Below are positions 44,997 through 64,000 of a stretch of 64,000 nt of DNA, in pieces. The notes under the pieces were generated by a model, which did no database searches, had not been told where the DNA came from, and saw only the letters and a program-made list of their open reading frames with translations. The stretch is from an uncultured Methanosarcinales archaeon (GTDB lineage: Archaea > Nanobdellota > Nanobdellia > Woesearchaeales > GW2011-AR15). The translations under genes were made by a program, and so were the position numbers. Each line of letters opens with the position of its first letter. The first letter of the stretch is position 1. The stretch spans positions 66,366 to 130,365 of the forward strand of contig CAZEKF010000001.1 of NCBI GenBank assembly GCA_964512765.1, given 5' to 3'.

Positions 44997-45091
44997 GATT
45001 AAATCACCTTTAACCTGAGATAAAACTTAAATGATAAATAAAGGTATCGGTGCATAAACTTAAATATAAAATGTTTTTTCCCTATTGAAGA

Positions 45092-46738
45092 ATGACGAAA
45101 AAGAAAAGATTAATGGATGATGCAGATCTTGATCAGTTTGTTAGAGACTGTATTCTTATATGGTATAATCGAACTGATGCACAGCCAATAACCGAAGAAC
45201 AGTCAAAAAAAATTTACAGAACAATTGGTGATATGGTTAACGCACACGAATTAGTCGCAGAGGTTTTTGAAGCTACGCAAGACATAATTCCTTTAATTGT
45301 TTATGATGAAGTACGCGTTTTAAGAAAAGAAATTGATCAGTATGATTCTCTTCTTTATGTTTTACATGGTAATTTTGATTATAGAGATGCACATCTAAGA
45401 CACGGAGATTCTTTGTTGGCTGTTTTAGCACAACACGTAGACTTGGCTACACCATACGAAACATGGAGACAACAACAAAACTTTTCTAAAGTTGATAATG
45501 TCACTGAACAACCTCAACAAGCACAAGCATTTGAAGTTGAACCAGGAGAAGAACATCACCACGTAGTACAACAATCTGTCCGAGATGAAATTCCGGTAAA
45601 TGCATCAGCAAGAGTTGAGGATATGCGTCTTGACGGTCATGCTTTACAAATACCAGGGACAGGAGTAACAGTTGCCACTCAGCTTGACCAACATCAAATT
45701 ATTGTTTCAGGAACAGCACCTAATAATTTTGTTATTCATCTACCAGGAGATCTTGGTGATAAATTACAAGACGGGTTACTTATAGTTGATACAATCGATA
45801 GGTTTTCACCTGAAATACGTCGTTTTGATTTTTTTTCAAGAGCTGAGCGAATTGCAGCTGGGCATGAAAAAGGGATAGCTACAAACTTATATCCGTCAGG
45901 ACAAGGAGCTAGTGCAACAATTACTTTTCAACAACCAGCAAACTATTTGTTAGTGCCTTTAGATGGAGATGGTGCATTAACTTGTGAACGAGGGAGATTC
46001 AAAGGATATATTGGGACATATAATTTGCGAAGATTTGAAAGAAATTTTAATATTTCTAATTTTCTTTTGGCAAACTTTAATTTTATTGTCAGTAAGTTAT
46101 CTGATCAGCCATTATTATTTGGACCTGTTCAAAAAGTGAATGTTAATGGTCAAGGATACGCAATAATTCAAGCATCTAAGGGAACTCAGACAGTTACCAT
46201 GCCTCCCCATGATGAACAAGATTTAGAATCGCCTGTTATTGCATACAAAAATGTTTTTTTCAAAGATAAAGGGTTGCCTTATAAAATTGGCATGGAAGTA
46301 ATTACTGCAGGAGGGTTAGCATCATTAGCTCTTATTTTTGGTGATAAAGCACCAGAAATAGGTAAAATGATTGGAGGATTTGCTGCAGGGTATTATGCTA
46401 CATCTGCAACGGTTGGCAAACGTACTTTTAAAAACACTTTAGTTAGTATTGTTACTGGTGTTGCTTGTGCAGCAACTACACAAATTAATTACGAACCAGT
46501 ACAAGAAGTTGTTCAAAATATTGTTGAACCTGTTTATGCGGGATTAGACGGATTATTTCTTGGGAGAATTCTATATGGAACAATATTTAATCCTATTAGG
46601 ATTAAAAACTGGGGAGAAAGAATATTTAGAATGTTATACTTGAGCAAAACCAATAATGCATTGACACAACCAGTAGCCTATACTAAAGAGAAAGTTGGTC
46701 ATGTTATAGAAGGAAGAATTGGTAGAGCTAGGGAATAA
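45092..46738 (+). CDS. Hypothetical protein with a C-terminal glycine-zipper membrane region (548 aa)
   Basis: About 400-aa soluble N-terminal region, then GxxxG-rich helices (VITAGGLASLALIFG, IGGFAAGYYATSA). Composition shift relative to the core genome. Confidence 0.3.
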   Translation: MTKKKRLMDDADLDQFVRDCILIWYNRTDAQPITEEQSKKIYRTIGDMVNAHELVAEVFEATQDIIPLIVYDEVRVLRKEIDQYDSLLYVLHGNFDYRDAHLRHGDSLLAVLAQHVDLATPYETWRQQQNFSKVDNVTEQPQQAQAFEVEPGEEHHHVVQQSVRDEIPVNASARVEDMRLDGHALQIPGTGVTVATQLDQHQIIVSGTAPNNFVIHLPGDLGDKLQDGLLIVDTIDRFSPEIRRFDFFSRAERIAAGHEKGIATNLYPSGQGASATITFQQPANYLLVPLDGDGALTCERGRFKGYIGTYNLRRFERNFNISNFLLANFNFIVSKLSDQPLLFGPVQKVNVNGQGYAIIQASKGTQTVTMPPHDEQDLESPVIAYKNVFFKDKGLPYKIGMEVITAGGLASLALIFGDKAPEIGKMIGGFAAGYYATSATVGKRTFKNTLVSIVTGVACAATTQINYEPVQEVVQNIVEPVYAGLDGLFLGRILYGTIFNPIRIKNWGERIFRMLYLSKTNNALTQPVAYTKEKVGHVIEGRIGRARE

Positions 46739-48110
46739 CCTCTTCGTAATAATCTGTTATTTTGAATGAATCAATAATTGTTGTGTTGTTTCCACTCACT
46801 TGATGAGCATTACCTATCAACGCGTTTTCATGCACGTCTATAGTTACAAAGTGATAAATACCGCATTTTGCATATTTTTGTAAAAAATTTATGCTTTGCT
46901 CATGATGACGTATTCCCCAACTACAGTCTTTTAATGGACCTCCTCCTCCGCCTGTTACAATAGTATGAATGAAGGTATTTGGAAAGATAAAAGTTTGTTC
47001 AGCACCGTTTTCGGGTTTAGTTTTATGCCCATCGTCAGGAACAGCATACCTTTCATATGAATGTAAATGACCTGAAAACACCATTGTTACATCATATTCT
47101 CTGAATAAATCTTCATAAAGATTACTTACTTTGGTAGTTTTACTCTCACCCATAGTAGCTGTATAAAACGGCATGTGCATGTATACAATAATGTTTTCTA
47201 TACCCTCCATTGATCGTGCTTGTTGAAGATGATTTTTTACCCAACCAACAGGTGTATTTCTCCAATATTCGTTTCCTTGTTCAAATGAAATAAAATATGT
47301 GTTTTTGTATCTAAAAGCATAGTTTGTTCCGTACTGAAGATCGCTTGGCGAACCAGATTCATGTGTGTTTGAAGGAGGGAACAACTTAAAATTATCTCCA
47401 AGTCCAGGGTTGCTTAGAAGAGAACTAAGAAATGACCTATATTGAAGAATTCCGTCTTGTGCTTGGTCATGGTTTCCGCTTGTTGGGAAGAAAGGTATAC
47501 CGTTTAGTTTATTTGTGAAACACTGGTTAAATCTACTGTAAGCACCGCCTGACCATCCCCAGTCCATTAAATCACCAGTATGAATTACTAAATTTGGGTT
47601 AGTCTGTGCTAACAAAGAGGGTAAACTTGATCTTTCAGCACCGCCGCATGAGTTTGTTGCATACTGTGTATCTCCAACAACGCCAAATCTAAACAAAAAT
47701 TCACCGTCTAATGATTCTGCGACTAATTTGTCCACAGGATTTCCTACCCACAACTCTAGTTTTTTTGAAGCTTCTGGTGTAGGTGTTGTCATTTGCGTAG
47801 ATGTCAATAAAATTTCTTGCGTTGGTGTCATAACATCTGTCGTTGGTGTATATACTTGAGTAGGATTTAATAGAACTTCTAAAGTAGGTGTTGTTGTAAT
47901 ATCAGATGAAACCACAGTGCCTAATGTGAAATCTGTTGAAAAAGCAATTGGGCTTGGAGTGACATAAACTTGTGCTTGGTTCTGTGATACAGATGTTGAA
48001 GAAGTTACTGTGCCATAGACCCAGCCAACAGTTACAGCACCGCCTAACAGTACAAGAGATCTTACTAAACCATTTTTCTTTTTCCTACGCCTACGTCTTC
48101 TTCTTGTCAT
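46728..48110 (-). CDS. Arg-tail signal-anchored surface protein with a calcineurin-like metallophosphatase domain; C-terminal ...EEVIP tag
   Basis: MTRRRRRRRKKK plus TM. T/P-rich stalk. Metallophosphatase motifs GDTQY, GDLMD, GNHD, MHMP, GHLHSYER. Ends DYYEEVIP. Confidence 0.7.
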   Translation of the reverse strand: MTRRRRRRRKKKNGLVRSLVLLGGAVTVGWVYGTVTSSTSVSQNQAQVYVTPSPIAFSTDFTLGTVVSSDITTTPTLEVLLNPTQVYTPTTDVMTPTQEILLTSTQMTTPTPEASKKLELWVGNPVDKLVAESLDGEFLFRFGVVGDTQYATNSCGGAERSSLPSLLAQTNPNLVIHTGDLMDWGWSGGAYSRFNQCFTNKLNGIPFFPTSGNHDQAQDGILQYRSFLSSLLSNPGLGDNFKLFPPSNTHESGSPSDLQYGTNYAFRYKNTYFISFEQGNEYWRNTPVGWVKNHLQQARSMEGIENIIVYMHMPFYTATMGESKTTKVSNLYEDLFREYDVTMVFSGHLHSYERYAVPDDGHKTKPENGAEQTFIFPNTFIHTIVTGGGGGPLKDCSWGIRHHEQSINFLQKYAKCGIYHFVTIDVHENALIGNAHQVSGNNTTIIDSFKITDYYEEVIP

Positions 48111-48116
48111 TTTTAT

Positions 48117-49469
48117 TTAAGGTATAGCTTCATCAGGATCATACTCTTCCACATTTGAAGCAACATGAACATCAGATTGTAACCTTGCAACCCAGATTTC
48201 GCTGTTTGATTTTTTCAAAGAATAACTGTGCTGCTGGTCTATCTTACCATATAGTAACCATAGTTCTTGGTTCATTCTATATATTTGATTTGCAGAATAA
48301 TGTTGGAAATTACCTTCTCCATTAAGAACCCACTTACCTGTTCTGTTCCAATTAATACCGTCACTGCTATACGTCCATTCTAAATGAACATTACCTTCAG
48401 CATGAACACGATCAACGCCTTCTCTAATGTTACGTAATTCTGGTTCATAAATCCAAAGAACACCTAAATATCCATTCTGAACTTGTGTAACTGCCATACC
48501 ATAGAAATGCGTGTCTTTTCCTTCTTTATCAATCTCACTTTGGTTTGGCACAAGCACTAGCTGTGGTTCAGACCAATTAATAAAATCATCAGATACAACT
48601 CTAGCAACAGTTCTTATTCTTACACCTTCAATATTTTCTTGTCTTTTAACATATCCAACATATTTATTTAACCTGAAATCATAGAAAAAGTTAGCAACAT
48701 CGCTCCAATTTGTATATGGGCCACCTATTTGATTAAAATCAATACCATTTGTAGATTCATATGCCATAAATCCGTTGTCTCGTTTATATACCATTAATTT
48801 CATGGTCTTTGTACCATCATAAACAACAGACGTCATGTTAGAATTTTCAAATAAAATCCGTTCGTTACTCCACTCATTACCATTACCACTTTCTACAACT
48901 CTAATGCTTGACCCAGAACCCGATGCTTTATCCCAATGAGTGAAATAAAGAAAATAGTTGTCACGATTTTCTCCTTTTGGTAAAATTCCACCATACACAT
49001 ACTCGATACCTTCAAACCTGTTTCCTTCTGTAAAAAGTATAGAATTATCTATAACTCTAACACTGTTAATCCAAGAAGCCAAATCAAACTCAAGATTACA
49101 TAAATATTCAGGAGGGCATAAAGATGCTTCTATTGTATTTTCAAGTGTAGGTGTTAAGGTTACAATTGGTGTTGAAGTTAACAACACTTTTGGTGAAGGA
49201 GTAAGTATAACCGGTTGAGTAGGATCAGACACAATAGTACCATCTGCAAAAGGTTCAGAAAAAGTAGGAATTGTCTGGTTGTTGTCAGAATGTTCTTTTG
49301 GATTATAAGGTAAGATAGCAGCTATTTGGTCAAATATTGGTTCGTTAAAATCAATCTGGCTTATTACATAACCTGTGTATAAAGAAGCTCCTCCTATTAA
49401 AGCAACTGTTCCAATAGTTTTAAGGAAATTTCCTTTTCTTTTCCTTCTTCTACGTCTTCGTCTTGCCAT
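48117..49469 (-). CDS. Arg-tail signal-anchored surface protein with a beta-propeller glycoside-hydrolase-like domain; C-terminal ...DEAIP tag
   Basis: MARRRRRRRKRK plus TM. T/P stalk. W/Y/G-rich repeated blocks typical of GH32/43/130-type propellers (the fold assignment is tentative). Ends EEYDPDEAIP. Confidence 0.4.
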   Translation of the reverse strand: MARRRRRRRKRKGNFLKTIGTVALIGGASLYTGYVISQIDFNEPIFDQIAAILPYNPKEHSDNNQTIPTFSEPFADGTIVSDPTQPVILTPSPKVLLTSTPIVTLTPTLENTIEASLCPPEYLCNLEFDLASWINSVRVIDNSILFTEGNRFEGIEYVYGGILPKGENRDNYFLYFTHWDKASGSGSSIRVVESGNGNEWSNERILFENSNMTSVVYDGTKTMKLMVYKRDNGFMAYESTNGIDFNQIGGPYTNWSDVANFFYDFRLNKYVGYVKRQENIEGVRIRTVARVVSDDFINWSEPQLVLVPNQSEIDKEGKDTHFYGMAVTQVQNGYLGVLWIYEPELRNIREGVDRVHAEGNVHLEWTYSSDGINWNRTGKWVLNGEGNFQHYSANQIYRMNQELWLLYGKIDQQHSYSLKKSNSEIWVARLQSDVHVASNVEEYDPDEAIP

Positions 49470-49475
49470 TTTTAT

Positions 49476-51134
49476 TTAAGGTATTATTTCTTCATAAAAT
49501 TCATTTCCTTCGAAAATTCTATCTCGAACAACATAATATGCTGCACTACACTCAACAGGTGAGTCTGTAATGCCTTCACCAACACAACCATATTCAGGTG
49601 TTTTAAATGGAGATTTTACAGCACCTGTTATAGAAGTAGAGAGCATAAAATCCTTAACAGCATTTGCAACAGCTTCATAACACCTAAAACTGTCAAAAGG
49701 GAACCCTTCCACAGCTTGGCAACTCATTAAATTGTTTGTTAACCAAGCAAGTTGGTCAAGACTTGTGTCATAATTAAGTGGTTCCTGAAAATTTAATACA
49801 TTTATCATATATCTAACATGCCACATATGACCTAACTCATGTGCAAAAACTTTTGTGAATATTTCTTGAGACACTGTATCTCTGTTTTTCATTATAATTT
49901 CATTATAGGAAACAACACCAGAGTCTGTTGTATTTTGAAAGCTTGTAACACCAGTGTCTGAACACGTCACAATTAACGGATCATTAAATAATACATAAGG
50001 TCCAACTCTTGTAACGAGTTCTTCTGCCCAAACAGGAATTTCTTGTCTACAGTTGTTAAAAGATACTAAACCAAATTCATATGTAGGGGCTTGTGCAACA
50101 ACTACAGTCGGAGTAGGTACAAGAGGTGTGTTAGTCAAAGTAGGGTTGAGAACACCAGTTGGCGTAGCTATCGCAACTTGACCACTACCTTGGTCAGGTT
50201 GAGAAATATCTACTTCAACAAACACACCTTTGTAATCAGGATATAAACTGCTAAGGTTTTCTAAACTAGTAGATTGTACACCACCTGCTGCAGTTGAATG
50301 AATAACAGTAACACCGTTATTAGTTGGGATCGCTATTCCAACATGCGAATATTCTCTTATGCCACCTTTATCATGGTTAAGTGTCCATAGATACATTTTA
50401 CCAATTTCCATATGATTACCAATATCATCCCATTTATCAGGGTCATAACCTTGGAACTCAGTAAATCCGTCTATTGGTTTAAATATCTGAGAATTTGGAT
50501 CAATAATGTATGCAATGTTAAGTGTCTGGTCCCAACCATATGCTTGCCTTAAAACTTCGTCATCTGCAGGTCGGTCTGTTCTTTGTTGAAATGCGTCGTC
50601 AAGTTTGATATTAACTCTACTAATTGCTCTGGCAGCTTGTAACTGATACCCTGCACAGTTGAATCCAATAACATTATCAATTGTTGGTGCACCACCTGTC
50701 CAATAAACAAACGAGCCATTATCATCAATAAAACCAAAGTTCTTGTAAGGCACGCCAATGTACTGACTTGCGTCATTTAAAGCCATTTGTGCAATTTCGT
50801 CAACACTTTTACTCGTCTGTGTAAAAAATAACGTTGGAGTTGGAGTTAACATTAAAGCATCAGGCGTAGGAGTTAATGCTACTGGTTGAGTAGGTCCAGG
50901 GATAAGTGTACCATTCATGAAACTTTCAGGAAAAATAGGAATTGCTTGATTATCATCAGATTGTTCTTTTGGGTTGTAAGGTAAGATAGCAGCTATTTGG
51001 TCGAATATTGGCTTGTCAAAATCTATCTGACTGATTAGATAACCACTGTATAAAGCTCCACCTATTAGAACCAAGTTTACACCAGTCCTAAGACAACCGC
51101 CTCCTCTCCTTCTTCTACGTCTTCGTCTTGCCAT
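49476..51134 (-). CDS. Arg-tail signal-anchored surface protein with NlpC/P60-like cysteine peptidase and HEXXH zinc-metallopeptidase domains; C-terminal ...EEIIP tag
   Basis: MARRRRRRRRGGG plus TM. NCAGY (Cys) and HVGIAIP...IHSTAAGG (His) of NlpC/P60. AHELGHMWH zincin motif. Ends NEFYEEIIP. Confidence 0.6.
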   Translation of the reverse strand: MARRRRRRRRGGGCLRTGVNLVLIGGALYSGYLISQIDFDKPIFDQIAAILPYNPKEQSDDNQAIPIFPESFMNGTLIPGPTQPVALTPTPDALMLTPTPTLFFTQTSKSVDEIAQMALNDASQYIGVPYKNFGFIDDNGSFVYWTGGAPTIDNVIGFNCAGYQLQAARAISRVNIKLDDAFQQRTDRPADDEVLRQAYGWDQTLNIAYIIDPNSQIFKPIDGFTEFQGYDPDKWDDIGNHMEIGKMYLWTLNHDKGGIREYSHVGIAIPTNNGVTVIHSTAAGGVQSTSLENLSSLYPDYKGVFVEVDISQPDQGSGQVAIATPTGVLNPTLTNTPLVPTPTVVVAQAPTYEFGLVSFNNCRQEIPVWAEELVTRVGPYVLFNDPLIVTCSDTGVTSFQNTTDSGVVSYNEIIMKNRDTVSQEIFTKVFAHELGHMWHVRYMINVLNFQEPLNYDTSLDQLAWLTNNLMSCQAVEGFPFDSFRCYEAVANAVKDFMLSTSITGAVKSPFKTPEYGCVGEGITDSPVECSAAYYVVRDRIFEGNEFYEEIIP

Positions 51135-51140
51135 TTTTAT

Positions 51141-52694
51141 TTAAGGTATTAATTCATCTGGTCCGTCATAATGAACTGTTGCAAAATTTACAACTGACCG
51201 ACCACTCCAAGTATATTCGTACAGCCTACCATTAAAATAAATCTGTTGCGATCCTCCAGCGTCCATGTTAATTGCAGAATGTGCACCAATGTTGTCCATT
51301 ATTTCTGCAGCATTGCACAAAGTCATTGGTTGAGTTATCATAACAAATAAGGTATTATCATTCACGCCAATCACTGTTCTTCCTCTTGAACCCCATTTAG
51401 GAGAATGACAATCTTGTTTAATGTCAGGATAAAAATCACCGCCGTAGTTGCTTCTATTAAACAAAGTATTGTTACCAGAAACAGCGTATAATATACCGTC
51501 GAAGTTACTGTTAATGTGCCTAATTGTTACTCTACCATTTTCATAAACTACTAATGAAGGCTCTCTAGGGTTTCCAGCATGGACATGATTACGATGTACA
51601 TACGGACCTTTAGGAACAGATGAACCAGAGTCCCATTGATCAGCATTAACAGTAAAAATTACATTATGGCTGTTAGCATATCCTTGCGCAGTATTTAACC
51701 CACCAGGTGCAGAAGATCCAACATTAATGTAAGGACTACACAAATCAAATTTAAACAAAGTATAATTGCCATTATTTTTAATTATTATAGGCTCATCCCT
51801 TGGTTTACAGTTATTTGGTCCTTGTGATTCTTCTGTTGGTCTAGGAGTATGTGTCAATGTAGGGACAGGAGTTGGTGTACTAATTAGATGTTTAATATCT
51901 ATATTACCTAAATCAGGTGAATAACTTTTAACTGCATCTTTTAGATGTTGGTAAGGATAACTGTTATTTGCAAAGCGCAACATTTCTTTTTCAGCTAGAT
52001 CGTAACTGTAGTTTTCGAACTCCACCCTATATATACCAACAATCATACCTGCTCTATGCGCACCATGCTGGCAATGAACATATACCGGTTGCATAGCAGG
52101 ATCTTTAATAATTGTCATAATCTCTAGAATATTTTTGTTAAAATCATGATGTGTAGGAGATTCTGCATTCATTGGATATTTATCAATGTAAATCATGCCT
52201 CTTTGTTCAACTAATGATCGTTCATTAGGCATTCCTTGAGACAAATCTATAACTGTTTTAAATCCTTGAGCTTGTAAATAATCAAAAGCAGCAGCAGAGT
52301 CTGGTTGAGCACCTGCAGCTAACACACCAGGATCAATCCATCTTAAATGAGTTACTGGTGAACCTTCAACTAAAGGAGGAATTTCTGCTTTAACAACAAT
52401 GTCAAGCGTAGTAGTTGGTTGAGGTGTAGGTGTATGGGTTGGCATCAATGTGGGCAGAGGAGTGTGAGTTAATGTTGCTAAAGTTTCTGGTGTTATGTAT
52501 GGGTCTGTTGGTGCGTACAGTACTGTTGCAGTAGTATCTAAGATTTGCTGAGCAGACATGTTATTAACATGAGCAGATGCATGGTCCCTTGTTTTAAAAT
52601 AAACAAATGACGCCGCTGTACCAAGAATAAATAATCCAAGAGGTATAACACAACTATTTCTACGATTCTTTCTTCTACGTCTCCTACGTGCCAT
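51141..52694 (-). CDS. Arg-tail signal-anchored surface protein with a CX5R (PTP/DSP-type) phosphatase domain and a phosphodiester-glycosidase (NAGPA-like) domain; C-terminal ...DELIP tag
   Basis: MARRRRRRKNRRN plus TM. VHCQHGAHRAG is an HCxxGxxR P-loop. C-terminal AINMDAGGSQQ resembles the NAGPA/DUF2233 motif. Ends YDGPDELIP. Confidence 0.6.
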   Translation of the reverse strand: MARRRRRRKNRRNSCVIPLGLFILGTAASFVYFKTRDHASAHVNNMSAQQILDTTATVLYAPTDPYITPETLATLTHTPLPTLMPTHTPTPQPTTTLDIVVKAEIPPLVEGSPVTHLRWIDPGVLAAGAQPDSAAAFDYLQAQGFKTVIDLSQGMPNERSLVEQRGMIYIDKYPMNAESPTHHDFNKNILEIMTIIKDPAMQPVYVHCQHGAHRAGMIVGIYRVEFENYSYDLAEKEMLRFANNSYPYQHLKDAVKSYSPDLGNIDIKHLISTPTPVPTLTHTPRPTEESQGPNNCKPRDEPIIIKNNGNYTLFKFDLCSPYINVGSSAPGGLNTAQGYANSHNVIFTVNADQWDSGSSVPKGPYVHRNHVHAGNPREPSLVVYENGRVTIRHINSNFDGILYAVSGNNTLFNRSNYGGDFYPDIKQDCHSPKWGSRGRTVIGVNDNTLFVMITQPMTLCNAAEIMDNIGAHSAINMDAGGSQQIYFNGRLYEYTWSGRSVVNFATVHYDGPDELIP

Positions 52695-52740
52695 GATGTT
52701 CTCATCGACCAGTAGTAAATAGTTATATTTAAAGATAGTG
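52650..52740 (-). repeat. Copy 1 of an approximately 90-bp duplicated segment covering the leaderless promoter (TATA-like TTTAAATATAACT) and the first approximately 14 codons of the Arg-tail gene
   Basis: A 45-mer CATGATGTTCTCATCGACCAGTAGTAAATAGTTATATTTAAAGAT at 52692..52736 is identical to 54313..54357. The flanks are near-identical. Confidence 0.7.
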
Positions 52741-52785
52741 GGTTTTCAATATGATTTTACTGTATAATTGAAGAAGAATTAGGTG

Positions 52786-54315: not shown

Positions 54316-54362
54316 GATGTTCTCATCGACCAGTAGTAAATAGTTATATTTAAAGATGGTGT
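54272..54362 (-). repeat. Copy 2 of the approximately 90-bp duplicated promoter / 5'-CDS segment
   Basis: See copy 1. About 4 mismatches over about 90 bp. Confidence 0.7.
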
Positions 54363-54441
54363 TTTTTATGAAAATTAACTCTTAATTAGTATCAAATAAT
54401 TTTAAATATAACGTGTCATTACTTTTTAGTAAGAATTTATC

Positions 54442-55818: not shown

Positions 55819-55829
55819 TTTAAAGAATT

Positions 55830-57314
55830 TTATCCAGTAATTTGATTTTGTTTGTTATGAGTTTGATTATGATCATATAACTCTTTTGTACTTAGACTAG
55901 TTGTTGCTGCAACTTGTTTAATTTGCATATGGTCATTGTTTGCCCATGAAGAAATTCTATTTACAGCTGCATGTATCTTTTCCATATCTCCTTTTGCGTA
56001 CATTCTAACACAAGCCAAACGGTAGTTAGGGGGAAGTTTTCTTAATTTTTTTTTTTTAATTTGTTTTACAGGATCTCTAAACAAACCAGTTTTCGGCATC
56101 CAGTCACCGTAAGCATATTCAGGTATTACTTCAAATACCTCTTCAGGATCAAATTCATCAATTCCTTTGAACATTCTTTCAGTCCATGTTGCTTCATCAG
56201 GCGGCATCCATGGTGCTATGGAACAGTTTCGAAACCTAGCAATTGAGTTGGCTCTAGGCTGTGGAGTGTACGGATATCCATACAATGGATAGTAAATTTG
56301 TACTTCTAATTCAAGACCACCAGACTTTTCTTTTTCTATTTCACTAACGTACCCAACTACTAAGTCACCGTCTATTTCAACAGGATTTAACTGGGAAGAA
56401 ACACCAGGAATGGGATCCCATCTTGGGTTTAGAGCTCTTCCCAAGAATAAATGATCAGCATATCTATCTCTGTATCCTTCCATTTGTGAAAGATGTCTTG
56501 GTAAAGCAAAAAGACCACCTAGATCATAAACTCTTTTTGAAAATTCAACTTCTAATTCCATCTGCCCTGTATTTGTATCATGGTCAATATCAGCAAAAAC
56601 CAAAGTACCCAAACTTCTATCAAATATTTTAGGCAAAGCATTTAAAAATTGAACTCTAGCCATTTGTTCTGGATCAAGTTGTAATATTTTAATTGCATTC
56701 AAGATGTATTTAGTAACATAGGTCATGGGACCTTGCGAAAGAATGTTGACGTTTGATATGTATGGGCCGCTAGCAAGTGCATTAATAAGACGCTTACCAA
56801 AAGCATCTATAGTAATTTCAGTCTTTACATCTCGATCTTCCACAGGATATTGTCCAATTCTGTATCTGTTTTTTGATGCTTGAATTTCTTCGTAGGCAAA
56901 ATGATGTTTGAGATGGTGAACTGAAAAATCTGTAAACAGTGTTGCAAGCATATCTGGACTTCCTGCCATTTTAAAATCTAACTCTAACTTTGCATACGAT
57001 CTGTTTGGATAAAGTTCTAACCTTGTGTCACTACCTATGTATTCTTCTTGTTTAGGAACACGTTGAACTATACTTGCAAGCCCTTTTCTAATTTTCCTAT
57101 GTTTTGTTTTGTCTAAACTAAAAACTGGTTGCTCAGATTGCTGTGGCGGAGGAGTGTCCCATACCATGATTTGAGGTTCTGTTTGACCTAAATCTGTAGT
57201 TATTTCTCCTCCTTGGGTAGTTGTTATTCTAGAATCGTTGGATTTTGGACTAGTCATATCGCATGAGATTATTAAGTTAATATTTAAATATTTGCTTTTT
57301 CTAACTACTTTCAA
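55830..57314 (-). CDS. Hypothetical soluble protein (494 aa)
   Basis: Long ORF with no TM and no recognised motifs. Island-type composition. Confidence 0.3.
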   Translation of the reverse strand: MKVVRKSKYLNINLIISCDMTSPKSNDSRITTTQGGEITTDLGQTEPQIMVWDTPPPQQSEQPVFSLDKTKHRKIRKGLASIVQRVPKQEEYIGSDTRLELYPNRSYAKLELDFKMAGSPDMLATLFTDFSVHHLKHHFAYEEIQASKNRYRIGQYPVEDRDVKTEITIDAFGKRLINALASGPYISNVNILSQGPMTYVTKYILNAIKILQLDPEQMARVQFLNALPKIFDRSLGTLVFADIDHDTNTGQMELEVEFSKRVYDLGGLFALPRHLSQMEGYRDRYADHLFLGRALNPRWDPIPGVSSQLNPVEIDGDLVVGYVSEIEKEKSGGLELEVQIYYPLYGYPYTPQPRANSIARFRNCSIAPWMPPDEATWTERMFKGIDEFDPEEVFEVIPEYAYGDWMPKTGLFRDPVKQIKKKKLRKLPPNYRLACVRMYAKGDMEKIHAAVNRISSWANNDHMQIKQVAATTSLSTKELYDHNQTHNKQNQITG

Positions 57315-57369
57315 GTGATAAAATTAGTATTATTTATATATAACTTGTAATTACTCATCGATAATAAAA

Positions 57370-58398
57370 ATGCCTAGACGTAGAAGACGAAAGAAAGGAA
57401 TAGTGTCACCTCTGTTAATAGTTCCTGTTGTACTTTCTGCGACTAGTTGTTATTTAGTTTATTCAGTTCTTAAGTCTGATGATGGTGCTCTGGCACAAAA
57501 CAATGTTGTAATGATAACCACAACCTCAGAATACACTGCTACTCCTGCATACACATTAACTGCTGTTCCACCTGAATTAACACCAGAGGCAACAGTTGTT
57601 TTACAAGATTCTCATGGAGAAGGTTTCCCTGCAATACCTGCTGAGTTATTTAGTGGGATTCCTTCTAACCCAGGGGGAGGAGCTTTAGACGGTAGTTTGT
57701 TGCCAACATCTACACAAATGCCAAGAATGGGCTCTGAAGATCAACAGCCAAGAGAAGAACCGAATAATCCACAACCTGATCTTGGGAACTGTGCTATTAC
57801 TTACCCGTTTCAAGGAACACTAGGAGTTGATTTTTCAAGAACCTCGGGACCCCATACTTATGGAGCAGCAATAAATGGGGTTTCTCAGAATGCAGAAGAT
57901 TATGGAACTGCTGCAAATGTTGATCCAGTAATAGCTGTAATCTCAGGCAAAGTACTTTACTCATCACATGCACAATTATTGATTGATGGTCCTTGTTACT
58001 GGGCTTATTATTATCATGTTGACCAAGACCTGAGATACGGTCAACAAGTTGAAATTGGTCAAGCTATTGGTAGAGAAGCTTGTAATGTTGATAGTACTTC
58101 AGCAGGTTGTAGTGGTCCTCACGTTCACCTTAATATTTACGTTAAAGCTCAAGGACGAAGTGTGCCATTATCAGCTCTTAATGTCACATCTTGGCCAAAA
58201 GGTAATTCATATAATCCCTTCCAGGAGATTAGCGTAGCTTCTGCTATAGATTTTTTAGTTGCAAAAGAAACTTTGCAGGGCTATGAAGCAACACCACATG
58301 CTTTTGTATCTAAACAATTAGCAAGCGGTATTTATGTGCCTTCTTCAAAGAAAAAAAATGTTTTAGATGAAATAGTATGGGACCAGCCAATTTTGTAA
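57370..58398 (+). CDS. Arg-tail signal-anchored M23-family (LytM/lysostaphin-like) metallopeptidase
   Basis: MPRRRRRKKG plus TM. M23 motifs YYHVDQD (HxxxD) and GPHVHLNIY (HxH). Ends DQPIL. Confidence 0.65.
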   Translation: MPRRRRRKKGIVSPLLIVPVVLSATSCYLVYSVLKSDDGALAQNNVVMITTTSEYTATPAYTLTAVPPELTPEATVVLQDSHGEGFPAIPAELFSGIPSNPGGGALDGSLLPTSTQMPRMGSEDQQPREEPNNPQPDLGNCAITYPFQGTLGVDFSRTSGPHTYGAAINGVSQNAEDYGTAANVDPVIAVISGKVLYSSHAQLLIDGPCYWAYYYHVDQDLRYGQQVEIGQAIGREACNVDSTSAGCSGPHVHLNIYVKAQGRSVPLSALNVTSWPKGNSYNPFQEISVASAIDFLVAKETLQGYEATPHAFVSKQLASGIYVPSSKKKNVLDEIVWDQPIL

Positions 58399-60632
58399 AT
58401 GGAATAGCACTTGTAACAACAGCTGCTAGGTTGTTGGTACCTGCTGCAGGAGAAGTAATAGCATCTGATACTGTAGAAAGCCCGCAACAATCTGTTTCTA
58501 TTTGCCAGGCAATTAATGATCCAGGCAGTATTGGTGGTGATCTAGGCAATTTAGTTAATGCACTGGCATCTGCAGCTAGCCAAGCGCCAAGACATGGTAT
58601 TGGAATGAATGGTGGTGTGGAAAAAATAACAGCAGACGTGTTTGGCTGCGGTGAAATGGAGTTAACTGGCAAGTTTTTATCAACACTACCTGCGGCAGTT
58701 GCATTGTACTATGAACAATCTGACATTTCTTCAATGATTTCCAATGCAAGAAGTTACCCAGGTGGTGACCCTAGCAATGAAATAAGATCTGCTGTAGTTG
58801 TTGCGTTGTCAATGACTGAAAAAGGTAGAAAGATATTATCTGATCATGGAATTAATGGAAACATTAACGATGGAGCACAATTATTAATGGCAGTAAACAG
58901 GTTTGATGGTAAAGGACACGACATTATACCTTTACAAGACGCGTATTATTTAAGAACAGCTCTTCAAAATGGTAGAATTGTTGATGCTACTGCTTATAAC
59001 GAGAAAGCAATGTGGTATTATCAACAGGTAATGTCCAGTCCAATTTTAAGAGCTACCATGACAAGGATATCGATTAGAGAATGGACTCACAGACATGGAG
59101 CACAAAGTTACTGGGTGCAAATGGGTGGACGAATTAATTATTATCCAGACCATCCATCAAAAATATTTAACAGTGGAAAATGGTCAAGTTCTGCCTATGG
59201 AAAATACCAGTGGTTGACAAAGACATGGAATGATTTTTCTAAAAAGTTTCTTAATGCTCCAGGAATGGATCCTGTTTCACAAGAGTTAGGCGCTCCTGTT
59301 TTAATGAGAGAAAAAAGAAGTTGTTTTGATTTAGTTAGAGCAGGAGATAGAAATAGTCTAACAAGTGCTTTATCAGAATTAGGCTGTGAATGGGCAGGTG
59401 TACCGAATAGCTTAGCCAGAAGTGGGTGTATTTCTGGACAAAATCCAGCTGAGTCTGGTCAAGCATTTATAGACGCTGTATTTAGTACACATCTTCAAGA
59501 AGCAGAAAATATGCAAGACCAAGCATTTAAAACATTGTCAAGTGCAGGCCATCTTGGACCTTATTTGATAGTGCCTGCATTTAATTTTCCTGCTGGGTCA
59601 GTTGTTAAACTGCATACAAGTTCAGGTATAGTTGAAGTTCAAGGTCCAATTGCTATTCCAACATCTAATTTAGGCGACTGGGCGCAAAACAATAACTGGT
59701 CAGATACACGCGCGGGAGAATATACACCAGGTAATGGTTCTATTCCAATGAGTTATGTTAAGTGGATTAATGAACCAGACATGAGGCCAGTTGTTAATGT
59801 TCCTCAAGACATTGTTGCTGCACCAGAAGATTATGTGTTAAGTGGTGGTGCATCTTCTGCACCAGGCAGTGTTCCTGCAATGCAACTTGACGACACAGCT
59901 GAGACACTTGGTGTAATAGATCAAACTAGAGTGTCATCATATGGTAAGTTTGATGTGGAGTACGATGATCTTATGACTGCGTTTATAAAATCAGATACAG
60001 AAGTTACGCTTAACATTAGATCAATGAATATGGAAACAATAATTCACCAAGATAATATGTTTAAAATTGCACTAGGTAAAAACCTTGAAGTTGAAGGAGA
60101 CAGTTTGTCCTTAATAGGTTGGGGTAATCAGTTTAACCTTGAAGTTAATCAAAATTCTGCTGTTTTACAGTTACCTCAAAGTGAGGGTTATTTTGGTATA
60201 GGACTTATTTATGAAACAAATGGTATTTCTTATATCTTAAATACCAAAACAATTTTTGAAAGTCCTGCGTTAAGAGGAGAGTTTACATTTTTCGAATTAG
60301 ATTTACCTACAATAACTGATGATAACATGCAAAACCTTGACATTGCAGCTGTTGAACTTTCATGGAAAATGTATCAAGAAACTTTTGGTATTGTTTATAA
60401 TCCAGAAGAAATTGTAGAAAGAAAAGCTGAATGGGAAAGATATTCAAGAGATACTAATCATCCAGCTAATTTCTTTTATGTAGAAGCTGTTGGTATGCTT
60501 GCAAACACACCTATTTTTGGATATAATGATTCAGGTGAAATAATTGCTCTTGAACATGTTACACAGAACATGTTATTGCCTGTTCAAACATATGAATCTA
60601 ATATTGATTATTATCAAGAAGTTATACCTTGA
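58377..60632 (+). CDS. Large hypothetical secreted/surface protein (751 aa) with a C-terminal ...QEVIP tag
   Basis: Overlaps the M23 gene by 22 nt. No Arg tail. Ends DYYQEVIP like the minus-strand family. Domains not recognised; a muralytic partner role is speculative. Confidence 0.35.
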   Translation: MGPANFVNGIALVTTAARLLVPAAGEVIASDTVESPQQSVSICQAINDPGSIGGDLGNLVNALASAASQAPRHGIGMNGGVEKITADVFGCGEMELTGKFLSTLPAAVALYYEQSDISSMISNARSYPGGDPSNEIRSAVVVALSMTEKGRKILSDHGINGNINDGAQLLMAVNRFDGKGHDIIPLQDAYYLRTALQNGRIVDATAYNEKAMWYYQQVMSSPILRATMTRISIREWTHRHGAQSYWVQMGGRINYYPDHPSKIFNSGKWSSSAYGKYQWLTKTWNDFSKKFLNAPGMDPVSQELGAPVLMREKRSCFDLVRAGDRNSLTSALSELGCEWAGVPNSLARSGCISGQNPAESGQAFIDAVFSTHLQEAENMQDQAFKTLSSAGHLGPYLIVPAFNFPAGSVVKLHTSSGIVEVQGPIAIPTSNLGDWAQNNNWSDTRAGEYTPGNGSIPMSYVKWINEPDMRPVVNVPQDIVAAPEDYVLSGGASSAPGSVPAMQLDDTAETLGVIDQTRVSSYGKFDVEYDDLMTAFIKSDTEVTLNIRSMNMETIIHQDNMFKIALGKNLEVEGDSLSLIGWGNQFNLEVNQNSAVLQLPQSEGYFGIGLIYETNGISYILNTKTIFESPALRGEFTFFELDLPTITDDNMQNLDIAAVELSWKMYQETFGIVYNPEEIVERKAEWERYSRDTNHPANFFYVEAVGMLANTPIFGYNDSGEIIALEHVTQNMLLPVQTYESNIDYYQEVIP

Positions 60633-62620
60633 GCTAACACAGAAAGATTGTCATACATTCTCTCTTTTACTTTGTGTTCATTAACACCATACAGTTCACA
60701 AAGCGGTTTTATTTTACCATACGGAATAAGTTTAACTAATCCGCATAAATCACTTGGTTTAAAGTCTAAGAAAGGTGCTAATTTTTCCAGAGTAGTTTTT
60801 AATCCTGTTCTACGAATGAGTTTTTGGACAATTGGGTGGTCATGATGACCATTGCTCATTCCTCTCATTACATCATAGACTTCTTTTGTTCTCTCTGCCA
60901 AGGGATTTTCACTTGGACTATGTTCAGGAAGTTCAGCTGAAAATTCGTCAAGTGTTTTGTAAATAGTTAATCTAATATAGTTAGTCATTATTTTTTTTCT
61001 TGCTTTTTCAATATGTTCTTCATCTATATTTAACAGCACAGATTCTTGTTCTTCTTGTGATAATTCTGTTAATGTTTCACTTACTTCAAATTCTGCAGCA
61101 GCTTCTCTCACTAAACCAACAGGAACATTTTTTAACAAAGTATATATTACTTCAGGATTGCCTCTAAATTTCGAATATTTAATCATGTCTGATCCTGAAA
61201 ATTGATAAAGTGGTAAAGACGTGTGAGCTGCATGATATTCTTTATACATGTCATCTAAACCATTTGTTTGGAGAGGACCTATTAATTGTTCAGCTAGAGC
61301 TGATCTAATCTCTGGCGGAACTGCAGTGAACATAAGATCATATTTATCTGAGTTTGTATCTAATGTTGTTCCTACTCTTCCTAATATCTCACAAAATCTT
61401 GTTAGTTCATGTTGAAGTATTTTTTTAAACTCAATGTCTGGAGGCATTTCACCAATTTTGTTTAAACTAGCATCCAAATACCATTGCCTAGCAAGTTTTG
61501 TTAGTTCTTCATAACTTAACTCAGGCATTAGTTTTGCTATTCTGGAATGTGTTCTTGCATATGTACTCGCTGTTCCTTCACTTACCATGTTTGGATCTTG
61601 GTTGAATAATAACCATGAAAATTGTATTTTAGTATCAGCAAACGGACCTTTTCTCGGATGCCTGGCTTCTTCTAAAAACAAATCATCTATACATGACGGA
61701 GGAGTATTTACCCACATAGAACTTGAATACTCTTTACCAAGATATTCTTGTGCAATAGCGTCGAATAGTGCAAGCATTGGCAAATCTGCTTTTATTCTTT
61801 CTAAAGCAACTTCTCCTATGTAACCAGTTTCTTCAATTAAATCAGCGTGTCTGTTAATCATACTAAGTGATTTTGCATATTCAACCAATGCAGGTTTTAA
61901 ATGTTCAGCCTGACCTTTAATTGATGCAATATCAATATGTTCCCAGATAGGTTTGTCAGATGCACCTGTTTCAAGAGTGTAAGAATTAACGTATTGACAT
62001 ATAATATTTTCTGTTACATCCAAAAGTCCTGTTATAAAACTATACATAGGATTTGAAGTTAAATGAATTTTTCTTAGTCTTCTTAGTAACTGATCCATAT
62101 CATTAGCTTCGTCTATTATAAAATCCAGATGTCCGAAAAAGTTACTTGGTGTAAGATTGCTTAAATTATCTTTTATGGTTCTATCTAAATTATGAATATA
62201 CATTTCACTGTCCAAAACACCGTTAAAAGATAAATTACTAAGAATAAGTTGTTCATATGTTTCATAGTTCAATAATCCTAGTCTAATTGCAAGAGAAATA
62301 GCATTAAAATTTATAGGAAAAATAGTTTTTTTAGATACACTGGCTGTGGATATAGGATCTAGTTTGCTTAGTGGAAAATGTGCTCTTGGAATGGATATGG
62401 TTTTTTCCTCATATTTAGGTATTAATTCTTCTTCAGTTAGCAAACCGCGCCATATTGTGTCTACTAAAACTAAATCAGGTTCTGGAACAAAAGGTATTTC
62501 TTCTTGAGGTTCAGGAAATAATGGTTTATGTCCATTTACCTGTTCTTGAGGTTTATAATCTCGAATATGTCTTGTACGAACTTGTGTTATTTCACGTACT
62601 CTAGTAGGTTTTTTCCCCAT
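60614..62620 (-). CDS. Hypothetical soluble protein (668 aa)
   Basis: Long ORF with no TM. Contains internal EEIP/EELIP peptides near the N-terminus. Function unknown. Confidence 0.3.
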   Translation of the reverse strand: MGKKPTRVREITQVRTRHIRDYKPQEQVNGHKPLFPEPQEEIPFVPEPDLVLVDTIWRGLLTEEELIPKYEEKTISIPRAHFPLSKLDPISTASVSKKTIFPINFNAISLAIRLGLLNYETYEQLILSNLSFNGVLDSEMYIHNLDRTIKDNLSNLTPSNFFGHLDFIIDEANDMDQLLRRLRKIHLTSNPMYSFITGLLDVTENIICQYVNSYTLETGASDKPIWEHIDIASIKGQAEHLKPALVEYAKSLSMINRHADLIEETGYIGEVALERIKADLPMLALFDAIAQEYLGKEYSSSMWVNTPPSCIDDLFLEEARHPRKGPFADTKIQFSWLLFNQDPNMVSEGTASTYARTHSRIAKLMPELSYEELTKLARQWYLDASLNKIGEMPPDIEFKKILQHELTRFCEILGRVGTTLDTNSDKYDLMFTAVPPEIRSALAEQLIGPLQTNGLDDMYKEYHAAHTSLPLYQFSGSDMIKYSKFRGNPEVIYTLLKNVPVGLVREAAAEFEVSETLTELSQEEQESVLLNIDEEHIEKARKKIMTNYIRLTIYKTLDEFSAELPEHSPSENPLAERTKEVYDVMRGMSNGHHDHPIVQKLIRRTGLKTTLEKLAPFLDFKPSDLCGLVKLIPYGKIKPLCELYGVNEHKVKERMYDNLSVLAQGITS

Positions 62621-62729
62621 TTTGCTACTAAAAAGTAATAAATATTATATAAATCTTTCCTTTTTGTTATTATTTGATAGTGGTTAAAAAAGTTAAATTT
62701 AAATATAAATTTGTTTTACAGAGGGTAAA

Positions 62730-64000
62730 ATGGCTAGTAGAGCGAAGAGACGTAGAAAACTTGTTAAGTTTGCTTTTGGAGCTATGGTACCTCTTACTGC
62801 TTTGTCATTAGGTTTTCTAGGTTACACAGTTCTTAATCCAGAAGGTGCTAAAAAACTTATAGTAAATGCATTTGATGGACTTCCTGAAATATCAATTTCG
62901 GACTTATTAGGAGATATAGATGTGAATTTGCCTAGTCTTCAAGACTTAATTCTTGGAGAAAGAAATCCTGAGGAAGGAGTGTTTAATCTAACTCTTTTTG
63001 GAAATACAGATTACAGATACTCAATAAAAACTGATTTTTTAGCAGTGCTAAGTTCTGGTGATTTAGGTGTTTCAACAGGTAATTTAAATATTTCTAGCCA
63101 AACTATCTTACTTTTACCAGAAGCTATACTAAGAGCACAATATCCACTTGTTGGTCAAGGGCCTAAATTTAGCTTATACAATGATTTTGAACTGCTTCAC
63201 GATACTAATGTGTGCATGCCAAAAGAAGATAAATTTGATTGTGCAGTTTATCCTGCAGGTACAGTGTTCTCAGGAGAAGAACATTTAGGCCAGATTCCAT
63301 TGGTAGTTACACCAAGGAAAGTATTACAAGGTCCACAATTATTAGATGCAGACGGTAATCCAAAATTTGATAATCACGTGATTTTTTCTTTTATTGATTA
63401 TGCAGGAATGGTAACTAATTCAGGATCATTCCAACTGTATGCAACACCTGAAGAAGTTTATGAATTAATGCAAGGTACAGAATTAACACTTCAGCAAGCA
63501 GAACAACAAGTAATTGATCAAAAACAACAAGCATTAGATTCGCTTTTATTAGAATTTTTTGATGAGAATGGTGCTGTAAAACAAGATGCGTTTTATGAAG
63601 ATCCATTAACCCAAGAAAAATTCTATGGTCAACAAGGATTTTGGGAAGCTATAATGGATGCAAATTTAGCTCCAACTAAAGAATCTGTACAAAAACAGGT
63701 CACGCAAGGTTATGTTAGTACAACCATGGTTTGGGAGACAGCTCCTGGTTCAATATCAGTTCAGTTAATGGATCTTGAACATGGAAATGTTAAATTTAAA
63801 AACATAATAAGAGACTGGTTTGATACTATTACAACAGATCCTAATACAGGTCAATCTTTAGAGTTCGAAAACAAAGCAATAGCACTTGATAGAGTTAGTG
63901 ATATTCCTCATGGTTTTGTAGAATGGTTTAATCAATACGTAGGCGGTCCTTTATTATATGCTGGTCCAATCGAGGTTAATAATCTTCAACAACCTGCACG
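62730..64000 (+). CDS. Basic-tail (RAKRRRK) signal-anchored protein, 3'-partial (runs off the window)
   Basis: MASRAKRRRKLVKFAFGAMVPLTALSLGFLGYTVL gives a basic tail plus TM like the island family. Reading frame open to 64000. Not in the ORF track because no stop lies within the window. Confidence 0.45.
   Translation, partial: MASRAKRRRKLVKFAFGAMVPLTALSLGFLGYTVLNPEGAKKLIVNAFDGLPEISISDLLGDIDVNLPSLQDLILGERNPEEGVFNLTLFGNTDYRYSIKTDFLAVLSSGDLGVSTGNLNISSQTILLLPEAILRAQYPLVGQGPKFSLYNDFELLHDTNVCMPKEDKFDCAVYPAGTVFSGEEHLGQIPLVVTPRKVLQGPQLLDADGNPKFDNHVIFSFIDYAGMVTNSGSFQLYATPEEVYELMQGTELTLQQAEQQVIDQKQQALDSLLLEFFDENGAVKQDAFYEDPLTQEKFYGQQGFWEAIMDANLAPTKESVQKQVTQGYVSTTMVWETAPGSISVQLMDLEHGNVKFKNIIRDWFDTITTDPNTGQSLEFENKAIALDRVSDIPHGFVEWFNQYVGGPLLYAGPIEVNNLQQPA

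Follow-up and report, generated by a model that had tools for sequence, protein, structure and literature searches.

A putative surface-effector island inserted between CDC48 and its conserved neighbour gene in a Woesearchaeota-like archaeon

In the genome of a Woesearchaeota-like DPANN archaeon with a low guanine-plus-cytosine (GC) content of 31%, we identified a block of ~20.6 kb that is inserted between the gene of the AAA+ ATPase CDC48 and a conserved neighbour gene and that encodes a family of putatively surface-anchored hydrolases. The window, i.e. the whole stretch of DNA that was analysed, comprises 64,000 nt (contig CAZEKF010000001.1 of assembly GCA_964512765.1, positions 66,366-130,365, forward strand), and window coordinates are used throughout. 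Its last open reading frame (ORF) runs past position 64,000; the continuation was read from L087, a stretch of a 167-kb contig from the Joint Genome Institute (JGI), which was found by look-up of the island protein ORFan3 and is identical to the window across the 13.4-kb overlap. Overall, 72.6 kb of genome sequence were covered. The block, referred to as the island, begins at 45,092, extends to ~65,660 and holds 13 genes; the preceding region from 1 to 45 kb, encoding 41 proteins, is referred to as the core. We consider it fairly probable that the block is an accessory surface-effector island that has long been resident and has expanded in place between CDC48 and the gene of a 135-amino-acid (135-aa) protein.

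The order of the flanking genes provided the decisive evidence for an insertion. CDC48 (42717..44996, minus strand; Pfam CDC48_N, CDC48_2 and two AAA domains) is the left flank anchor and lies outside the island, separated from it by a 95-bp AT-rich spacer (44997..45091) that reaches from the CDC48 start to the start of the first island gene, ORFan1. At the right end, composition reverts to core values at the 135-aa protein (12.6% lysine), which is encoded on the minus strand at window-equivalent positions 65,709-66,116 (L087:6505-6912, plus strand in L087) and has neither a Pfam nor a PDB match. We compared 160 CDC48-anchored loci from Woesearchaeota and Nanoarchaeota, 80 from GTDB (one genome per species) and 80 from metagenomes, whose CDC48 orthologues are 65-78% identical. 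Homologues of the 135-aa protein occur in 31 of the 80 GTDB loci and in 23 of the 80 metagenome loci (54/160; 34-53% identity, E-values down to 1e-39). In ~22 of the 31 GTDB carriers, the gene precedes CDC48 on the same strand with a gap of 14-311 bp, and in 20 of the 23 metagenome carriers it adjoins CDC48 at a distance of 34-240 bp. Overall, the two are direct neighbours with no island between them in ~42 of the 54 carriers. In the host, they keep their relative orientation but stand 20.7 kb apart. Searches with tblastn detected a homologue of an island protein in none of the 160 related loci. A single gain explains this pattern far more simply than precise losses in dozens of lineages, and these data show that the block was truly inserted between the members of a conserved gene pair. 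The conserved pairing additionally suggests that the 135-aa protein is a CDC48-associated factor or a co-transcribed partner. Among the candidates for synteny only this gene, located beyond the window end, was informative; on the core side, no other window gene was syntenic with CDC48 among the 160 loci. A first-pass annotation of this DNA had proposed a ~19-kb accessory island starting right after CDC48. Its accessory nature is borne out by the comparison, in which conserved synteny of the whole region was not seen, and the start at 45,092 stands as well, but the block runs on to ~65,660.

The distinctness of the island sits in the encoded amino acids rather than in the mutational signature, as GC content at third codon positions (GC3) and at four-fold sites, codon choice and dinucleotides are all host-like. 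Compared with the core, island proteins are reduced in lysine, isoleucine, leucine and phenylalanine and enriched in proline, glutamine, alanine, arginine, threonine and glycine. The island/core ratios of the pooled genes (P 1.85, Q 1.71, T 1.27, G 1.22, W 1.18, K 0.42, I 0.68) confirm the earlier description of proteins rich in G, P, T, Q and W and poor in K and I, with W raised only weakly. In each of the 13 island proteins, the share of Phe, Tyr, Met, Ile, Asn and Lys (FYMINK) lies 1.3-3.0 standard deviations under the core mean and that of Gly, Ala, Arg and Pro (GARP) 1.0-3.2 standard deviations over it; the FYMINK shift is common to proteins with and without the C-terminal tail described below. 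Pooled GC amounts to 0.354 in the island compared to 0.310 in the core, with marked differences at first (GC1, 0.484 versus 0.387; Mann-Whitney p 9e-6) and second codon positions (GC2, 0.393 versus 0.291; p 2e-6). GC3 (0.198 versus 0.239) and four-fold-site GC (0.128 versus 0.180) are lower in the island. Relative synonymous codon usage (RSCU) of island and core correlates with r=0.98, and an amino-acid-independent likelihood score for the synonymous fit to core preferences gave +0.044 for island genes and -0.002 for core genes. Intergenic GC within the island is 0.20. The dinucleotide signature distance (delta*) between island and core is 57, while equal-sized core chunks span 21-68; the tetranucleotide correlation of 0.837 is marginally below that of core chunks (0.849-0.917). 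The higher GC of the island hence derives entirely from amino-acid usage. A raw sliding-window GC profile does contain a step, but at ~42 kb and not at 45 kb, because CDC48 itself has a GC content of 36.6% (with core-like amino-acid usage and 9.5% lysine); the genes of SecY and AglB at 1-4 kb are equally GC-rich. The compositional contrast that had been proposed for the region is therefore real for GC1, GC2 and amino acids (p~1e-6 to 1e-5 for the two codon positions), so that a lack of any significant difference was not what we found, but it does not extend to GC3, codon usage or dinucleotides, and tetranucleotides are marginal. More generally, a GC step in an AT-rich genome can stem purely from amino-acid usage, and in the present case it is uninformative with regard to recent transfer.

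A shared protein frame, confined to the island, unites most of its products. Seven island proteins start with a leader consisting of M-x-R(5-8) or a similar cluster with a net charge of +6 to +11, followed by an uncharged hydrophobic 19-mer (Kyte-Doolittle 1.37-2.01), and in six of these seven the hydrophobic segment is followed by a stalk of 40-57% Pro+Thr+Ser. At the other end, 8 of the 13 island proteins carry the C-terminal tail aromatic-x(0-3)-[DEQ]-[EQ]-x-I-P, one of the eight ending in -P-I-L instead. The tail motif was found in none of the 41 core proteins and in none of ~2,800 ORFs in 2.3 Mb of relatives. A twin-arginine translocation (Tat) signal was considered for the leader and rejected: seven to eight consecutive arginines do not fit S/T-R-R-x-F-L-K, and the window yielded no TatC. 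On the minus strand, five of the tagged genes are lined up head to tail as an array, with spacers of 6 nt in three cases and 91 nt in one. Similarity among the five products is limited to residues 1 to ~115 (BLASTP, up to 62% identity), and their heads are unrelated. Three of the junctions share a 57-nt unit (48078-48134, 49437-49493 and 51102-51158, minus strand; 81-93% identity) that contains the tail codons (...I-P), the stop codon, the 6-nt spacer ATAAAA, the ATG and the poly-Arg codons of the next gene. This unit looks like a cassette joint and could mediate recombination or translational coupling. Synonymous divergence (dS) of the leader paralogues and of an internal duplication in a further island protein is 0.61-0.77, with a ratio of nonsynonymous to synonymous divergence (dN/dS) of 0.22-0.51, indicating that the duplications are old and that the products are under purifying selection. 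These features are consistent with long residence and growth in place, in the course of which a conserved cassette frame would have been copied and fitted with unrelated enzyme heads. On the 5' side, this frame comprises poly-Arg, a transmembrane helix rich in glycine and a Pro/Thr stalk, and on the 3' side an aromatic-acidic-x-I-P-COOH tail.

The heads of several tagged proteins were identified as hydrolases, in line with the Arg/tail-tagged hydrolase family of the first-pass annotation. The first array member (46728..48110, minus strand) consists of MTRRRRRRRKKK, a transmembrane segment, the Pro/Thr stalk and a calcineurin-like metallophosphoesterase (Pfam Metallophos, E 3e-17), and ends in YYEEVIP. 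The following gene (48117..49469, minus strand) encodes poly-Arg, transmembrane segment and stalk in front of a candidate five-bladed beta-propeller head that resembles glycosidases, with weak matches to beta-1,2-mannobiose phosphorylase in NCBIfam (E 8e-5) and to sucrose-6-phosphate hydrolase in the PDB (E 0.012); it ends in DPDEAIP and shares a leader identity of 60% with the next product. This one (49476..51134, minus strand) has the same N-terminal architecture, a head with the zincin motif HELGH and the tail FYEEIIP. Its Pfam matches are sub-threshold only (Peptidase_C92, E 0.029; Reprolysin_5, E 0.087), and a word-indexed search of 5.8e9 proteins, in which the tool scores 8,000 candidates, returned only the protein itself and a paralogue. 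The fourth member (51141..52694, minus strand) carries poly-Arg, transmembrane segment and stalk followed by a dual-specificity phosphatase fused to a NAGPA phosphodiester glycosidase (NAGPA, E 3e-14; PTP-NADK, Y_phosphatase2 and PTP-SAK, E 1e-10 to 1e-11) and ends in GPDELIP. The leader of the fifth (52786..54315, minus strand), again combined with transmembrane segment and stalk, is 87% identical to that of the fourth at the nucleotide level; the head has no family or PDB match, the tail reads NYDEPIP, and an additional FEEVIP lies directly behind the transmembrane segment.

Two further tagged proteins point to peptidoglycan as a substrate. The first (57370..58398, plus strand) combines poly-Arg, transmembrane segment and stalk with an M23 metallopeptidase (Pfam Peptidase_M23, 31.9 bits, gathering cutoff 28.7; PHROG endolysin, E 6e-5; NCBIfam Pgp3, E 2e-4) and has the degenerate tail WDQPIL. 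The second (58377..60632, plus strand; 751 aa) contains a lytic transglycosylase of the lambda-lysozyme/GH104 type at residues ~234-345 (PDB 1am7/3d3d lysozyme, E 2e-5; PHROG_90 endolysin, E 1e-10; ~31% identity to phage lytic transglycosylase/GH104 genes in tblastn), ends in DYYQEVIP and starts with a hydrophobic N-terminus that lacks poly-Arg. LysM, PG_binding, SH3 and SPOR domains did not match even at E<=5. The two genes overlap by 22 nt in different frames, and joined they would amount to one complete leader-to-tail protein. An A8 run (58351-58358) leads into a TGA at 58368-58370; this stop codon confines a possible shift to 58371-58398, where there is no canonical slippery site, and a frameshift fusion was rejected as unproven. 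The last tagged protein (62730..64000 for the first 423 codons, plus strand, with the gene continuing to ~64,535; 601 aa) begins with MASRAKRRRK and a transmembrane segment, has a head that matched no family and ends in NFDEVIP. With basic clusters, hydrophobic 19-mers, stalks and hydrolase heads that include two types of peptidoglycan hydrolase, sequence features thus support the surface-effector content that had been suggested for the region.

Five island proteins lack the tail. ORFan1 (45092..46738, plus strand; 548 aa) is non-hydrophobic in its N-terminal part, has a hydrophobic region rich in glycine towards the C-terminus, and matched no family in Pfam, PHROGs, NCBIfam or PADLOC. An exhaustive HMMER search of 1.84e9 representative proteins yielded a single distant full-length homologue, P0004 (30% identity, E 7e-13), on a contig of 3.1 kb; a metagenome scan with the alignment of both proteins gave no confirmed locus. 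The Gly/hydrophobic C-terminal pattern, with a Kyte-Doolittle peak of 1.72 at residues 399-417, is conserved in P0004, and ORFan1 is therefore probably membrane-associated, so that the characterisation of three large ORFans as soluble probably does not hold for this one. ORFan2 (55830..57314, minus strand; 494 aa, or 475 aa from the ATG called by JGI) and ORFan3 (60614..62620, minus strand; 668 aa, predicted to be all-helical, without a hydrophobic segment) had no match in the same four libraries either, and their single-sequence AlphaFold models (predicted local distance difference test, pLDDT, 33.9 and 35.9, respectively) are too poor to use. Word-indexed searches with ORFan1 and ORFan3 returned only fragments of the proteins themselves or paralogues, a weak negative as ORFan1's own entry was missed. 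A fourth protein (54442..55818, plus strand; 458 aa) opens with a very basic stretch of 39 residues, 16 of which are K/R, followed by two tandem copies of a ~200-aa domain with 79-80% nucleotide identity (dS 0.72, dN/dS 0.22), and has no family or PDB match. The last island gene (~64,638-65,660) encodes a K-poor 340-aa protein with a GC1 of 0.54 and a GC2 of 0.40. No significant match came from PDB sequence searches with the heads lacking a family, with the duplicated-domain protein or with the 135-aa protein. The three large ORFans, which the first-pass annotation put forward as candidate partners of the tagged proteins in export or processing, have no family match and almost no homologues. 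Divergent gene pairs are formed by the duplicated-domain gene and the five-gene array, by ORFan2 and the M23/GH104 pair, and by ORFan3 and the last operon; by its layout, this arrangement is compatible with a regulatory, chaperone or partner role of the three.

Hallmarks of mobile elements were sought at the borders and among the proteins. ARAGORN detected no tRNA or tmRNA gene in the 64-kb window, the gene adjoining the right border is protein-coding, and Rfam gave no match at the gathering score. The best word common to the 500-bp junction regions is 11 nt long, on opposite strands and with an E-value of 0.05. Integrase, transposase, capsid, portal, terminase and replication families were absent from the matches in Pfam, PHROGs and NCBIfam; here, the 51141 protein was compared with Pfam only, and the 340-aa and 601-aa proteins with Pfam and PADLOC only. 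PHROGs matches were limited to endolysin and tail-lysozyme families in two proteins, IMG/VR contained no match for the two island proteins tested, one of which was ORFan2, and PADLOC reported no defence system. No housekeeping family was found by the library scans within 45-64 kb, as the first-pass annotation had stated for the last 19 kb.

The raised pooled GC and the sharp gene-level borders in GC1, GC2 and amino-acid usage are what a recent transfer from a GC-richer donor, the classical interpretation of a GC step, would produce, but the synonymous and non-coding sites argue the opposite. Third positions and four-fold sites are poorer in GC than those of the core, island genes follow core synonymous preferences more closely than the core genes themselves, RSCU correlates with r=0.98, intergenic GC is 0.20, and the dinucleotide distance lies within core variation. 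Paralogues within the island have additionally diverged to a dS of 0.6-0.8. Taken together, this excludes that the block was transferred recently from a donor of different composition; recent horizontal transfer is not supported in general, and we leave the classical interpretation a marginal probability. The description of the region as horizontally acquired is accordingly not demonstrated, given native synonymous sites, diverged paralogues and the lack of a tRNA, an integrase, a direct repeat and a viral gene. That it is rapidly evolving is not supported at the population level, where assemblies are 99.9-100% identical, nor by the dN/dS of 0.2-0.5 on duplicated parts. An integrated virus or integrative mobile element, whose lysis genes (M23, lysozyme) gave rise to the hydrolase signal, would explain the PHROG endolysin matches of two proteins, the resemblance of the GH104 domain to phage lytic transglycosylases, the numerous ORFans and the pair of a DUF2683 gene and a 62-aa gene just beyond the right border. 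However, the scans of Pfam, PHROGs and NCBIfam turned up none of the virion, packaging, integrase or replication families, att-like repeats and tRNAs are missing, the two proteins tested are absent from IMG/VR, and the lysin-like proteins wear the same cellular leader, stalk and tail as the other hydrolases, which makes such an element very improbable. A chimera of two organisms joined at CDC48 during assembly or binning has only the GC step in its favour. Six contigs span the left junction, where they are 100% identical, and four span the right one; they stem from different JGI, European Nucleotide Archive (ENA) and Logan assemblies with 99.9-100% identity, contigs reach 167-262 kb, and synonymous usage is native; since the same DNA recurs in many independent assemblies, this explanation is ruled out for practical purposes.

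It could also be argued that there is no island at all and that an ancestral, native cluster of secreted proteins, with a composition reflecting extracellular location, was lost in the relatives. Synonymous usage is native, and one core protein shows that protein class contributes to composition: the secreted-looking 239-aa product of 20528-21247 (minus strand), with a hydrophobic segment followed by T/P/G-rich sequence and no Pfam family, has the most island-like composition of the core (FYMINK 0.20, K 3.8%) and is probably another surface protein. Yet the flanking genes adjoin each other in ~42 relatives, drawn from two independent collections, a homologue is missing from all 160 loci, and a single gain is a far simpler assumption than precise losses that occurred independently many times. 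Moreover, untagged non-hydrophobic island proteins share the shift, which extracellular location therefore cannot explain, and we regard an ancestral cluster as improbable. The shift in these proteins hints at a separate history, possibly an old horizontal transfer. Such an old acquisition of the block or its founder genes, with another organism or a mobile element or virus that has not been sampled as the donor, and this donor either similarly AT-rich or GC3 equilibrated since then while GC1 and GC2 lag behind (amelioration), is a real if tentative possibility; it overlaps with the reading of a long-resident island expanded in place and differs from it on origin alone. It would be in agreement with a block inserted relative to conserved gene order, with low FYMINK and high GARP in all 13 proteins, apparently cytoplasmic ones included, with island GC1 and GC2 that match the most constrained core genes despite relaxed constraint (dN/dS 0.2-0.5), and with M23, GH104 and NAGPA as typically bacterial or phage domains. 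On the other side, neither a donor nor a homologue was detectable for the proteins tested, GC3 lies under and not over the host mean with native codon choice and dinucleotides, and integrase, tRNA and direct repeat are lacking.

Several points weigh against the reading of a resident surface-effector island. In seven of the 54 carriers of the gene pair, one to three unrelated ordinary genes lie between its members, so that adjacency is common but not universal; at the same time, these cases indicate that the spacer tolerates insertions. The nearest relatives, with a CDC48 identity of 76-78% and no further synteny, do not bracket the timing and mode of the insertion. Three of the eight tagged heads (those of the 52786, 49476 and 62730 genes) have no significant annotation and a fourth (48117) has weak matches only, while a peptidoglycan target is indicated by two proteins, neither of which has a recognised peptidoglycan-binding domain. 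The amino-acid shift of untagged, apparently cytoplasmic proteins also belongs here. Finally, topology and export are predicted from sequence.

With regard to function, we propose that the basic cluster and the hydrophobic helix would act as a Sec-type signal anchor with the N-terminus inside, according to the positive-inside rule and with SecY encoded in the window, and that this anchor would put the stalked hydrolase heads outside the cell. There, the heads might attack or process the envelope of another cell, either a partner or prey, with bacterial peptidoglycan and its phospho-linked glycopolymers as the most plausible substrates. As for the shared C-terminal tail, it would most likely be a common tag by which the proteins are recognised for docking, retention or processing. 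Peptidoglycan hydrolases feature prominently in Nanoarchaeota and are able to kill bacteria (PMC12352652), and some Woesearchaeota carry lytic transglycosylases that were interpreted in terms of a predatory or "vampiristic" lifestyle (PMC9723730), a proposal with which a role against a prey envelope would fit. As a more speculative and in our estimate rather unlikely extension, the poly-Arg anchor and the [YFW]-x(0-3)-[DEQ]-[EQ]-x-I-P-COOH tail might constitute a new display or sorting system, in which the tail is recognised by one or more orphan proteins of the island, and these would dock, process or pass on swappable cell-wall-degrading enzymes at the site of contact with the host or prey. 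ORFan1, the duplicated-domain protein, ORFan2, ORFan3 and the 340-aa protein may be the candidates for such recognition, and the repeats at the cassette junctions would let new enzyme heads plug in.

DPANN archaea rely on other cells, and the molecules at the cell-cell interface are largely uncharacterised. The locus described here represents a compact and delimited candidate toolkit with at least eight predicted surface-anchored enzymes, one leader/tail frame and two peptidoglycan hydrolases, the latter of which would speak for bacteria, and not archaea, as the target. If the tail is indeed a sorting or docking tag, it would be a new kind of signal in archaeal protein trafficking. In addition, the hydrolase heads could be mined as lytic enzymes.

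Families in the core include SecY, AglB/STT3, a run of glycosyltransferases, GlmS, a GlmU-like enzyme, phosphoglucomutase, RIO kinase, aIF5B, Trm1, MetA, a free-standing LAGLIDADG protein, AP endonuclease and CDC48. At 1472-28000, AglB/STT3 and several GT2 glycosyltransferases lie in an envelope-glycosylation neighbourhood together with EpsG-like and DUF6541 membrane proteins, an enzyme of the NAD-dependent sugar epimerase/dehydratase family, EamA transporters, GlmS, the GlmU-like nucleotidyltransferase and phosphoglucomutase. The LAGLIDADG-domain protein (337 aa; 40392-41405, minus strand) is encoded between EF-1beta and AP endonuclease. Adjoining the homoserine O-succinyltransferase gene, a 35-codon remnant of a Cys/Met-metabolism pyridoxal-phosphate (PLP) enzyme (~39,692-39,799, JGI gene call) suggests local gene decay. 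Beyond the 135-aa gene, the right flank continues with the DUF2683 gene and the small 62-aa gene, transaldolase, a protein kinase, Lon, ribosomal protein S2 and RadB. The DUF2683 protein (77 aa) and the basic 62-aa protein are encoded at L087:5956-6379, between the 135-aa gene and transaldolase, in a toxin-antitoxin-like layout, and this pair is not present in the CDC48 neighbourhoods of relatives.

The same DNA was recovered from many independent JGI, ENA and Logan assemblies. A variant occurs in ENA ERZ23498668 in the region matching 46728-49469, where the metallophosphoesterase gene has a 9-nt in-frame deletion and a point change cuts the 48117 protein to 429 aa with loss of its C-terminal tail; apart from these changes, the assemblies are identical. 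The top CDC48 matches in GTDB and the JGI metagenomes are metagenome-assembled genomes of Woesearchaeota and Nanoarchaeota with an identity of only 76-78%, and no relative above 78% was found in the GTDB contigs or JGI metagenomes searched, indicating a lineage without a close sequenced relative.

Other DPANN archaea, such as Ca. Mancarchaeum Mia14 and nanohaloarchaea, have genomic islands and strain-specific secreted surface proteins (PMC5498576, PMC10266531). With these, the present locus shares a lineage-specific block in a small symbiont-type genome that is missing at the corresponding locus of relatives and that encodes membrane-anchored or secreted proteins thought to mediate cell contact. 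In contrast to the published islands, which were called by atypical nucleotide composition and often have integration scars or archaeal homologues, it is native in synonymous composition, bears no hallmarks of integration and has essentially no homologues, and its products are hydrolases in a shared leader/tail frame instead of PKD, LamG or giant adhesins. It lacks most of what defines a classical integrative genomic island: the sporadic distribution is present, whereas an atypical nucleotide signature is not, GC1, GC2 and amino-acid usage alone being different. The similarity to archaeal peptidoglycan hydrolases and to "vampiristic" Woesearchaeota (PMC12352652, PMC9723730) comprises an M23 and a lytic-transglycosylase-type lysozyme domain, export-type N-termini and bacterial murein as the implied target. 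However, the published Woesearchaeota enzymes are GH23 lytic transglycosylases, while the one found here is lambda/GH104-like, and the two hydrolases belong to a larger co-located family with phosphoesterase and glycosidase heads. They possess the catalytic domains (M23, GH104) but not the binding domain of a modular peptidoglycan hydrolase as defined in PMC12352652, and thus do not fall under that definition.

In its organisation, the locus resembles polymorphic toxin and effector arrays (Zhang et al. 2012, PMC3482391), which likewise combine a tandem arrangement and a conserved N-terminal trafficking part with unrelated enzymatic domains, and the repeated junction DNA could mediate a similar swapping of heads. 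One head weakly matches the toxin phosphatase family Tc-R-P (E 6.5e-6; 27.1 bits at a cutoff of 27). Unlike in these arrays, there are no immunity genes between the members (no small ORFs; spacers of 6 nt and, once, 91 nt) and no known secretion-system domain, the variable part is internal with a conserved tail behind it, and the heads are envelope hydrolases instead of nucleases or deaminases. Sortase-type signals (PGF-CTERM/archaeosortase, PEP-CTERM/exosortase, LPXTG) also place a short C-terminal motif on otherwise unrelated extracytoplasmic proteins. These signals are, however, tripartite, with motif, transmembrane helix and basic cluster all at the C-terminus, whereas the motif described here makes up the last five residues and helix and basic cluster are N-terminal; none of the NCBIfam CTERM models matched, and no archaeosortase or exosortase was present among the Pfam-scanned ORFs of the 72.6 kb. 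Overall, the locus is best placed among the accessory surface-protein loci of DPANN archaea, to which its leader/tail system potentially adds a new element.

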